22,812 nucleotides of DNA. Origin: Promethearchaeota archaeon (lineage in GTDB: Archaea; Asgardarchaeota; Lokiarchaeia; Sigyniarchaeales; SOKP01). Position numbers and translations under genes: made by a program. Shown here piece after piece: positions 357-2,791 of the stretch. The notes under the pieces were generated by a model. The model searched no databases, had not been told where the DNA came from, and was given only the letters and a program-made list of their open reading frames with translations. How positions within the stretch are numbered: the first letter of the stretch is position 1; every line of letters begins with the position of its first letter. Location of the stretch: the NCBI GenBank assembly GCA_016839745.1, contig JAEOTS010000113.1, positions 1-22,812 on the forward strand. The letters are read 5' to 3'.

Positions 357-429
357 ACTCCCTTTCCCTTGCGAGGCAAGTCATCCTACAACTACAATTT
401 TCTTGCAGGAATCATTCTACGGGAGGAGT
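357..429 (-). promoter_or_regulatory. Eukaryote-like SECIS element (selenocysteine insertion sequence)
   Basis: Minus strand 415->380 reads AUGA-U-UCCUGCAA-GAAAAUUGUAG-UUGUAGGA-U-GA-C. This gives an AUGA/GA core, an 8-bp helix with one G.U pair and an A-rich apical loop. A lower helix can form between ACUCCUCCC (429-421) and GGGAAAGGGAGU (368-357). It lies directly 3' of two genes with in-frame UGAs. Confidence 0.85.
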
Positions 430-846
430 TATTACATCCGCATACTTTATCGGATTGGATCCAGACCTCTTTATTTTTTCGTATGCATCCTCTACGCTTT
501 TAACTAGTTTATCTGCTTCTGCTCCGCTTAACCAATACATATTGATTCTTTGATTTCCGTAACCTCTTAAGTCAAGTATCCTATTAGCTAAATCAACATG
601 CCTTTGAGCGGTAAAATTACCTTGTTTGAACTCGCATTCATTTGGGCGTCAACCAACAACCATAACTCCGTCAGCTCCAGCTTTTATCCCATATAGAATA
701 TGCTTTACATCGATTCTTCCGGTACACTTTACTTTTATAATTTTGATTGATGCGGTATATTTCATTCGAGAAACTCCAGCTAAATCCGCCGCAGAATACC
801 CTCATTTCAAACAAGCAAACATTAGAATTTTAAATTCGTTCTCCAT
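412..846 (-). CDS. mvhD: Methyl-viologen-reducing hydrogenase delta subunit MvhD/VhuD, selenoprotein with 2 Sec (U15, U66), 144 aa
   Basis: Manual translation: MENEFKILMFACLKUGYSAADLAGVSRMKYTASIKIIKVKCTGRIDVKHILYGIKAGADGVMVVGURPNECEFKQGNF...GSNPIKYADVITPPVE*. TGA at 804-802 and 651-649 replaces the Cys of the MvhD CxxC and GCxxxxC motifs. SD AGGAGGT overlaps the hdrA 3' end. Confidence 0.93.
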
Positions 847-850
847 TTTT

Positions 851-2791
851 TTAACCTCCTTCCAACATTCCATCAATTTCAGTAAATAACTGATAATCTC
901 TAAAATATCTAATATCTATCGCGTTAGTCGGGCAACAACTAGCGCAGATTCCGCAGCCATCGCAATTAATTTCGTCTATAACCGCCGCTTCTTCACCTGT
1001 AACCGTTATTGCATTTTTAGGGCATACCTTTTCACATCTTCCACAGCTAATGCAAAGATCATTAGTAACTTCTGCAATAATTAGTTCAATGTCTATTTCT
1101 CCAGGAGCTGTTAATTCGGCTACCTTACTTGCGGCAGCTCTAGCTTGAGAAACAGAGTAGGCTATGTCTTTTGGACCTTGGGCGAACCCCGCAATGAAAA
1201 TTCCTTTAGTTTTAGTTTCTTGCGGCATTAATCCAAAGTGAGACTCTGTTAAAAATCCATTTCGATCAGAGTCTAAATTTAATATCCTAGAAATTTGCTC
1301 CGTACCTTTTGAAGGTAATGCAGCTGTTGATAATACTACTAAATCTGCGCTGATTTTTATGATTTCGTCAGTTAACGAAGAGTAAACTCGGATATTAACA
1401 TTCTTTGTGTCTGGATCTTCAGAAAATTCGCCTACTTTTCCTCGAATCATCCTAATGTCAGATTCTTTAGCTCTTTGATAATATTCTTCGAAACCCTTTT
1501 CGTTAGTCCTCATATCTATGTAACAAATAGTAATATTTGCGTTAGGGAATTCTTCTTTCAGCAATTTTCCATTTTTTAAGGCTAACATGCAGCAAACGCC
1601 GCTACAATAAGGTCTCTCAGTGTCCCGACTCCCCACACATTGAATAAACACTATTTCTTCAGGTTCTTTTGTATCCGATATTCTATGGGTATGACCTTCT
1701 AGAGGCCCATTTGGAGCTAGAATTCGTTCGAGCTGGCATTGAGTTATAACATTTTCAAATTCTCCGTATCCATACTCTCCGAACGGCTCGTAAATGTTCC
1801 ACCCCGTCGCTACAATGATTGTGCCTACTTTGAAAGTAACTTCTTCTGGTACCTGACTGAAGTCTATAGCGTCTAACTCGCAAGCTTCAACGCAACTAAA
1901 GCATTCAACGCACACATCACGATTAATATCGTACAAGAAGGGGACGGCTTGTCCAAATGCGATGTCTATAGCTCTTCTTGGTCCTAAGTGTTCGTCAAAG
2001 TAATTGGAAGTGATTATCGGACAAACTTCCGTACACGCTCCACATCCATTACAATCGTTGTTTACATATCTAGGCTTCTTTTCAACTTTCACATCGTAAT
2101 TTCCTACGAATCCATCCACTTTTTTCACGTCGCTATAACTTAGAATTTCTATATTTTCGTTCCGATTAACTTCGAGCATAACGGGACCGCAGATTCATAT
2201 CGAACAATCGTCGGTAGGAAATGTTCTATCTAATTGGGCCATTCTACCTCCTATAGTAGTTTTACTCTCGACTAAATACACTTTGATCCCTTCGTTTGCG
2301 AGGTCCAATGCAGCGTTCATTCCAGCAATCCCCCCACCTACTATCATTGTGGCTTTTTCAACGGGGACCGTTCTGACTGGAACAGCTTCTAAAGTTTTTG
2401 CTCTATTTACTCCGCTAGTAACGAGGATTTTAGCTTTATTTAGTGCATCTTCACTATCTTCTGTACACCAAGAACAATGCTCTCTTACATTTACCATTTG
2501 AAAATGGTAAGGATTTAAGCCCGTTTTAGAAATAGAGGCCCTATAAATTGGTTCGTGAGTCCTAGGTGTTCAAGCAGACGCCACTATACAATCAAGGTTT
2601 TTTTCGTTAATATCGTTAATTATTTCTTGTTGTCCACCCTCTGTTCACAGAAAAGCATGAGTTTTAGATATCACAACATCGTCTAAGCCTTTTGCATAAT
2701 CTACTAGTTTATCGCAATCTACTTTTCTCTTAATGTTAATTCCTCACTGGCAAGCATAGTATCCAATCCGATGATTTTCAGATTTTTCCAT
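851..2791 (-). CDS. hdrA: Heterodisulfide reductase subunit A, selenoprotein with 4 Sec (U16, U49, U74, U199), 646 aa
   Basis: ATG at 2791 (SD GAGGTG upstream) is in frame with track ORFs 2195-2497 and 851-2179. In-frame TGAs at 2746-2744 (ACQUGINI), 2647-2645 (FLUTEGGQ), 2572-2570 (SAUTPRTHEP) and 2197-2195 (TFPTDDCSIUICGP) match HdrA motifs CHCGxNI, MCSxxGQ, ACSPRxHE and TFPTxDCSxCI. Also present: GGGIAG FAD motif, CVGSR...YCSGVCC, and four CxxCxxCxxxC ferredoxin motifs. Confidence 0.95.

Follow-up and report, generated by a model that had tools for sequence, protein, structure and literature searches.

Genes and features of the locus

The window, the whole stretch of 22,812 nt that was analysed, carries on its minus strand a bicistronic arrangement of hdrA, with four in-frame UGA codons, and vhuD (also called mvhD), with two, and a single predicted SECIS element lies behind vhuD (Table 1). 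Translated with TGA as U, hdrA is a single open frame, and a Pfam search with its product revealed FAD/NAD-binding and 4Fe-4S domains. The vhuD start lies 4 nt past the hdrA stop, and a GGAGG motif is located upstream of vhuD. Both UGA codons of vhuD align with cysteine (Cys) in the homologues from Archaeoglobales, Methanomassiliicoccales and bacteria, which is the usual signature of selenocysteine (Sec) codons. The nearest vhuD loci are found in MAGs labelled Promethearchaeota or Hermodarchaeota, and the source organism is a Loki-type Asgard archaeon. Standard gene callers split hdrA and vhuD at UGA, which gives the reading of this locus a value for annotation.

Table 1. Coordinates of the genes and of the predicted SECIS element in the window
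Feature	Position	Strand	Description
hdrA	851..2791	minus	646 codons; stop UAA 853-851
hdrA in-frame UGA	codons 16 (2746-2744), 49 (2647-2645), 74 (2572-2570), 199 (2197-2195)	minus	
vhuD/mvhD	412..846	minus	144 codons; Pfam FlpD, E = 3e-41
vhuD predicted Sec codons	U15 (804-802), U66 (651-649)	minus	
Closing (C) helix, 5' strand CUCCC	425-421	minus	within the last vhuD codons
Kink-turn, 5' strand	417-412	minus	G417, bulge A416 A415 U414, G413, A412
SECIS core AUGA	415-412	minus	vhuD stop UGA 414-412 inside AUGA
Upper (NC) stem	411-403 with 391-383	minus	U.U, then 8 standard pairs
Apical loop GAAAAUUGUAG	402-392	minus	11 nt, A-rich start, final AG
3' core half G382, A381 and C380	382-380	minus	C380 pairs with G417
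Third (T) arm, conserved register	376-366	minus	CCU 376-374 with GGG 368-366, loop CGCAA 373-369
Closing (C) helix, 3' strand GGGAG	362-358	minus	pairs with 425-421; 3 nt past the T arm
Two U5 tracts	347-343, 328-324	minus	between the element and the next gene (ATG 299-297)

Reading of the minus strand from 415 to 381 revealed AUGA followed by UUCCUGCAA, the apical loop GAAAAUUGUAG, UUGUAGGAU and GA, that is, a stem of nine positions, a loop of 11 nt and the return strand between the two halves of the core. The stem is continuous and AU-rich and displays no bulge. A preliminary description of this DNA, made from the letters, had reported an AUGA-stem-loop-GA hairpin at this site, and the letters are exactly as described there. 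A search with a covariance model detected only this one element in the window. The U5 tracts 3' of the element are likely archaeal oligo-U termination signals, judged by their sequence.

Enrichment, placement and covariation of the hairpin

The folding energy of 101 nt gave a z-score of -1.2 against shuffles, which is not significant, and Rfam searches with 22.8 kb, 3.2 kb and 141 nt revealed no SECIS family, neither at the gathering score nor at E <= 10. The genome has a G+C content of 32% and is rich in weak hairpins, 283 of which were collected as decoys.

To describe the hairpin we used a strict pattern consisting of AUGA, nine positions, an 11-nt loop of the form RAAA...G, nine positions (at least seven of eight pairs) and RA. 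The 3.53-Mb genome contains 11 matches to this pattern, as compared with 0-2 in ten dinucleotide shuffles and one in the reversed genome. Ten of the 11 matches follow a frame with in-frame UGA, nine of them at a distance of -1 to 23 nt and one at 43 nt, while the eleventh is found behind an HdrA gene that is cut by the contig end. Four of the ten matches behind UGA frames follow further vhuD copies, which show the same spacing of 51 codons between their UGA codons.

To measure covariation in the upper stem, 51 Asgard elements were aligned with MAFFT and a part of the alignment free of gaps was used. The stem positions are paired in 98.5% of the cases and compensatory changes occur at all eight pairs. 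The covariation score is 0.92. Shifting the partners one to three columns out of register lowers it to 0.12-0.20, and none of 500 shuffles reached 0.92; these shuffle counts are not probabilities, because the compared sequences are related to one another. Among the 51 elements, no variation was seen at loop positions A33-A35 and G41. Eight close orthologues, with VhuD proteins of 78-92% identity, have either U-A or C-G at two of the stem pairs. Covariation across the 3' ends of orthologous vhuD (mvhD) genes had been proposed as a check in the preliminary description, which tied its reading to conservation or covariation of the hairpin in related genomes, and the element is indeed conserved with covariation in these eight orthologues. 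The hairpin is real and has not arisen by chance.

Sister elements in the genome

In total, the genome harbours 13 elements of type I and two type II elements, the latter behind SelD genes. Two of the 13 were added to the pattern matches by a covariance model built from Asgard elements, and they follow the fifth vhuD gene and the second Prx-like gene. Frames with in-frame UGA, or the contig-cut HdrA, precede the type I elements at a distance of at most 25 nt in 12 of the 13 and of 43 nt in the remaining one. The genes preceding them comprise five vhuD, one contig-cut HdrA, two Prx-like genes, one vhuU-like gene and four genes for small unknown proteins. Weak matches of the model on contigs C17 and C164 were dropped, as neither had a selenoprotein frame or a fitting fold.

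Predicted kink-turn core

A simple kink-turn follows a consensus of a standard pair, a 3-nt bulge, tandem sheared pairs and a non-canonical helix, and this consensus suits binding by proteins of the L7Ae family. We compared 62 elements, about 50 of which are from other Asgard genomes. In every one of them (62/62) a pair is formed between the nucleotide located two positions 5' of AUGA and the one right after GA, as G:C in 49 elements, U:A in nine, U:G in three and C:G in one. On the ungapped alignment this bulge-flanking pair is formed in 51 of 51 elements, with 11 double changes. Three unpaired nucleotides (A/G, A, U) are left between the flanking pair and the G.A/A.G pairs. The stem is followed by GA in 57 of the 62 elements and by AA in the other five. 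At the level of sequence and covariation, the window element thus conforms to the kink-turn consensus, with G417:C380 as the standard pair, A416, A415 and U414 as the bulge, and the oppositions G413/A381 and A412/G382. The G.A pairs of the core are predicted to be of the sheared type.

The k-junction (Wang, Daldrop, Huang and Lilley 2014, PMC4005666) has the same third helix in the non-bulged strand, near the point opposite the bulge, and shares with simple L7Ae-bound kink-turns the order of pair, 3-nt bulge, tandem G.A and A.G, and non-canonical helix that is seen here. In contrast to the k-junction, Asgard elements may have one to three standard pairs between the kink-turn and the branch point. 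The Asgard element appears k-junction-like, a resemblance at the level of secondary structure only.

Closing helix, third arm and the register of its pairs

Minimum-energy folds showed the same three-way junction in ten of the 11 pattern matches, built from helices without a common sequence. The junction is also present in the two extra elements found with the covariance model and in both type II elements of SelD. Among the 62 elements, plain constrained folds revealed it in 43, and in most of the others it was found by inspection. RNAalifold, applied without guidance to three subfamilies that were aligned separately with MAFFT, detected the third arm in each of them and in one also the closing helix. 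The third arm usually begins 1-4 nt past the core, and 0-3 nt separate it from the closing helix. When the stretch 1-7 nt past the core was inspected for the start of a hairpin with four or more base pairs, two or more of them G:C, all 11 real elements had one, versus 9% of the 283 look-alikes. We found the third arm in loci labelled Borrarchaeota, Jordarchaeia, Freyarchaeota, Hodarchaeota, Odinarchaeota and Thorarchaeota. The closing helix occurs in other elements with differing sequence.

The counts for the closing helix and the third arm derive from a covariance-model alignment (A4), which is fitted to the model and leans towards it; the same alignment misplaces the subfamily with AUGG/CCAU, which was aligned separately, and the closing-helix counts are therefore conservative. 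When the helix potential of each element was compared with that of shuffled flanks, only 24 of the 62 elements were at a fraction of 0.05 or less. This score is weak in AU-rich DNA, so that we relied on covariation and on the decoy control from the same genome.

The preliminary description had suggested a possible lower helix and a small side hairpin, which together with the main stem would make a three-way junction. The lower helix is borne out by the pairing of CUCCC with GGGAG, which the orthologues keep with changes on both sides, and the junction corresponds to a fold common to the Asgard elements. The side hairpin had been called atypical, but it is a conserved arm of these elements. Its letters, UUGC-CUC-GCAA, do stand at 379-369; the register proposed for them, however, is not the one favoured by the comparison of orthologues. 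In that register the pair G377-C371 fails in four of eight orthologues, and the pair C380-G368 that would extend it fails in six of eight. In the shifted register, C376-G366 and C375-G367 are each kept in 8/8 and U374-G368 in 7/8 orthologues, the last with the variants U-A, U-G and A-U, and the shifted hairpin shows a compensatory change. RNAalifold on the ungapped orthologue alignment likewise selects the CCU/GGG register. Nearest-neighbour energies of the window sequence alone favour the earlier register (-20.7 versus -17.2 kcal/mol), but this would use C380 and break the pair G417:C380. As the orthologues keep the pairs of the CCU/GGG register and the extended form of the other takes C380, pairing of 376-374 with 368-366 around the loop CGCAA is favoured over pairing of UUGC with GCAA (379-376 with 372-369). 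In this conserved register, a G-pyrimidine step was read by eye in the third-arm loop of 15/15 elements of the genome, CGCAA being the loop of the window element. The secondary structure of the junction, with its closing helix and third arm, and the covarying pair of the kink-turn are a refinement of the published model and do not define a new kind of element.

Selenocysteine machinery

SepSecS and an EFSec with an archaeal SelB domain III (aSelB_III) are encoded on contig C150, and a PSTK-like gene, which scores 173 bits over the full model and thereby below the equivalog cut-off, is located on C72. SelD is present on C158 as two tandem genes that both contain an in-frame UGA. A BLAST search with a tRNA-Sec of the same genus as query revealed the tRNA-Sec gene at C150:5449-5602 (L002:1128-1281), with SepSecS directly downstream of it and EFSec about 3 kb away. 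Its anticodon is UCA, its acceptor stem has 9 bp and its T stem 4 bp, and the discriminator base is G. Two introns split the gene; the one in the anticodon loop measures about 26 nt and the one in the T loop about 29 nt. The gene was missed by ARAGORN (with and without intron mode), by the Rfam tRNA-Sec model and by a custom scan of the genome for the 9/4 fold, and this failure of standard tools on a two-intron tRNA-Sec is a practical point for annotation. For the published Loki tRNA-Sec, the text of Mariotti et al. 2016 (PMC4989117) describes an intron in the T loop only. In 12 genomes of the same genus, some of them 99-100% complete, the Rfam tRNA-Sec model finds the gene in four; introns may hide it in others.

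The preliminary description had made the presence of a tRNA-Sec, SelB/EFSec, SPS, PSTK and SepSecS in the genome a touchstone of its reading. All five are there, PSTK in the form of the PSTK-like gene.

A search with Pfam PF01248 detected only two genes of the L7Ae family in the genome, which is 89% complete, and SBP2 has not been found in published searches. Immediately downstream of EFSec on C150, on the same strand, lies a gene for a Roadblock/LC7-domain protein of 145 aa (L021:378-812(-)). An uncharacterised gene confined to Asgard archaea and often adjacent to genes of the Sec machinery is mentioned in the text of Huang 2024 (PMC11227280).

Comparison with known SECIS elements

With eukaryotic SECIS elements, the window element shares the non-Watson-Crick AUGA..GA core, the unpaired loop adenines, the 3' location and the predicted service of several UGA codons at a distance. 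It differs from them in its shorter upper stem of nine positions, in giving no match to an Rfam model (the eukaryotic one is presumably SECIS_1, RF00031), in the third arm that leaves the 3' strand just below the core, in its location in a presumably polycistronic mRNA and in the apparent lack of SBP2. In eukaryotic elements, the core and the unpaired adenines are separated by a helix II of about 12-15 bp, and we know of no eukaryotic SECIS model with a third arm.

The SECIS elements of Methanococcales and Methanopyrus occupy the same 3' UTR site and serve the same selenoprotein families (HdrA, VhuD, VhuU and SelD), and their VhuD elements carry AUGA and GAC/AAC. The methanococcal asymmetric GAA/A bulge and the G+C clamps and stems are absent from the window element, as judged by reading and not by a model search.

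The closest likeness is to lokiSECIS (Mariotti et al. 2016, PMC4989117) and to the Asgard type I eSECIS-like structures (Huang 2024, PMC11227280), whose core, as given in the texts of these papers, is identical to that of the window element. According to the text of the former, a lokiSECIS comprises AUGA, a 9-bp stem, an 11-nt loop with early adenines and a final G after A, and GA; it adjoins the stop codon, and HdrA and VhuD share one element, which is located behind VhuD. The same text reports for Lokiarchaeota multi-Sec HdrA proteins whose frames always end in UAA or UAG, elements that reach as many as six UGA codons across about 2 kb, and, for VhuU.1, an AUGA that doubles as the stop codon (PMC4989117). 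For type I eSECIS-like structures, the text of Huang, Xiao and Zhang 2024 (PMC11227280) gives a stem of 7-15 bp with at most two mismatches and a loop of 8-20 nt, and reports that 85% of 1,438 Asgard selenoprotein genes have such a structure. The window element agrees with this type in the flanking AUGA and GA, the size of stem and loop, the A-rich start and final AG of the loop, its position, its covariation and the accompanying machinery. The preliminary description had noted a eukaryote-like AUGA..AA..GA core and a likeness to elements reported from Lokiarchaeota, which holds for each stated feature of lokiSECIS. It had also regarded a helix II shorter than the eukaryotic consensus as a peculiarity; the stem does have nine positions, but this is the published norm for the class.

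Neither Mariotti 2016, Huang 2024, Sun 2021 nor a 2026 review mentions a third helix in its main text; they describe a hairpin, or a lower stem with an internal loop. Figures and supplements aside, these published texts contain neither a three-way junction nor a covarying pair before the 3-nt bulge in Asgard SECIS elements, and the text of Huang 2024 (PMC11227280) cites the k-junction paper solely for the GA_AA pairing. In the only functional test published for a Loki element, that of vhuU.2 was inactive in Methanococcus maripaludis (Peiter et al. 2025). The predicted energy of -6.9 kcal/mol suggests that the construct consisted of the hairpin alone; the inactivity is more likely due to the differing machinery of the host.

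Proposed function and alternative explanations

We consider it highly likely that the window element is the SECIS of the hdrA-vhuD operon and a member of the lokiSECIS or type I eSECIS-like class. Judged by sequence comparison, the folded RNA very probably makes the six upstream UGA codons read as selenocysteine. The preliminary description had taken the hairpin for the functional recoding element, a reading that is supported by the lokiSECIS match, the covariation among orthologues and the Sec machinery in the genome.

In the mechanism that we propose, hdrA and vhuD, with their observed gap of 4 nt, would be transcribed together into one mRNA, the 3' end of which would fold into a kink-turn (G417:C380, bulge AAU, G.A/A.G) that bears the stem of nine positions and the A-rich loop of 11 nt. 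This kink-turn would be seated on a three-way junction with the CUCCC/GGGAG closing helix and the small third arm. Covariation backs the secondary structure of kink-turn and junction, and the RNA would presumably be kinked at the bulge. The fold would recruit EFSec with Sec-tRNA-Sec, either directly or via a putative kink-turn-binding adaptor; these two routes are proposed because SBP2 appears to be absent. EFSec would then place Sec at the six UGA codons, 0.24 to 2.3 kb upstream and across the UAA stop of hdrA. The layout of the genes can be read directly from the DNA, and action over such a distance would agree with the proposal in the text of Mariotti 2016 (PMC4989117). The seventh UGA (414-412) ends vhuD, presumably because it lies inside an element that the arriving ribosome would already have unfolded.

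The probability that we are dealing with a chance AU-rich hairpin or a plain terminator, and that the UGA codons are sequencing errors, pseudogene lesions or signs of another genetic code, is practically negligible. The energy z-score of only -1.2 would fit such an explanation, as would a genome of 32% G+C with its 283 decoys. Against it stand the enrichment of the pattern, its strict placement behind UGA frames and the covariation. Moreover, the UGA codons stand exactly at conserved Cys positions, the Sec machinery is complete, and the genetic code is unchanged, since UGA serves as an ordinary stop in other genes. A true eukaryote-type SECIS, read as in eukaryotes by an SBP2-like protein with an L7Ae domain, is very unlikely as well. 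It would share the AUGA/GA core and the A-rich apical loop, and the kink-turn consensus would suit an L7Ae-family protein; yet no Rfam family matched even at E <= 10 on 141 nt, the upper stem has nine positions versus about 12-15 in eukaryotes, a third arm is present, and the genome contains only two L7Ae-family genes, while published searches were without SBP2.

An explanation that deserves more weight, though we still regard it as rather unlikely, accepts the published two-part hairpin alone as the recoding signal and assumes that the closing helix and the third arm are kept for another reason, such as the protection or definition of the 3' end of the mRNA, or the holding of the core off the ribosomes, and are not themselves recognised by the Sec machinery. 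Published models, as worded in the texts, require just the core, the upper stem and the loop; the U tracts 3' of the element make a role at the transcript end plausible, and the sequence of the closing helix is free to vary. This explanation is difficult to reconcile with a third arm that lies 1-4 nt past the core in 15/15 elements of the genome, including the differently built ones of SelD, and with three arms that form a tight junction with 0-3 unpaired nucleotides. The G-pyrimidine loop step is likewise found in 15/15 elements, whereas a bare stabilising hairpin needs neither a fixed junction nor a conserved loop. There is, in our estimation, an even chance that the Asgard SECIS departs from the two-helix short eukaryotic SECIS of the published models and that the third arm with its G-pyrimidine loop step, placed on a k-junction-like kink-turn, constitutes an obligatory contact for the archaeal SECIS reader, for which EFSec itself, L7Ae/L30e or a new protein would be candidates. 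If the arm is such an obligatory contact, constructs without it would be inactive, and the step from Asgard to eukaryotic SECIS elements would have involved loss of the arm.

The class, the element shared by HdrA and VhuD, the reach over six UGA codons and the AUGA as stop are in the published text of 2016, and according to the text of 2024 more than 1,200 such elements were catalogued, so the instance in the window adds little to them. The architecture is the part that could matter: reporters, binding assays and search models should span the whole junction of about 70 nt.

Further predicted selenoprotein genes

The genome contains five copies of vhuD (on C64, C79, C185 and C20 and in the window), each with two predicted Sec codons and its own SECIS element. 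HdrA sequence lies directly upstream of vhuD on C64 and in the window, and the sixth element of this kind, on C43, follows HdrA without vhuD, where the contig end cuts the gene. With three of the other VhuD copies of the genome, the window VhuD shares an identity of only 37-38%.

The tandem SelD/SPS genes are located at C158:16207-18940; each has one in-frame UGA and is then followed by a type II SECIS element. These elements display a ministem in the apical loop, and their closing helix and third arm are as in type I. The third arm is formed by CCGUU/AACGG and its loop is GCAC or GCUC.

Four small frames with UGA in the same genome are located directly upstream of full three-armed SECIS elements and are candidates for selenoproteins that have not been listed so far. 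They encode a membrane-like protein of 63 aa with the motif GGGUPKPC and an in-frame UGA (L010:245-433(+)), a zinc-ribbon protein of 73 aa with four UGA codons and its stop inside AUGA (L015:344-562(-)), a zinc-ribbon protein of 39/40 aa ending FK-UGA-UAA (L012:352-468(-)) and a protein of 158 aa with GCUU (L016:1731-2204(+)). Pfam searches with these four frames revealed no family over the threshold.

An Asgard-type vhuD with two Sec codons and a lokiSECIS was also detected in JAWODV010000081.1, a sequence labelled Kosmotogaceae bacterium, which is probably a binning error of the public MAG.
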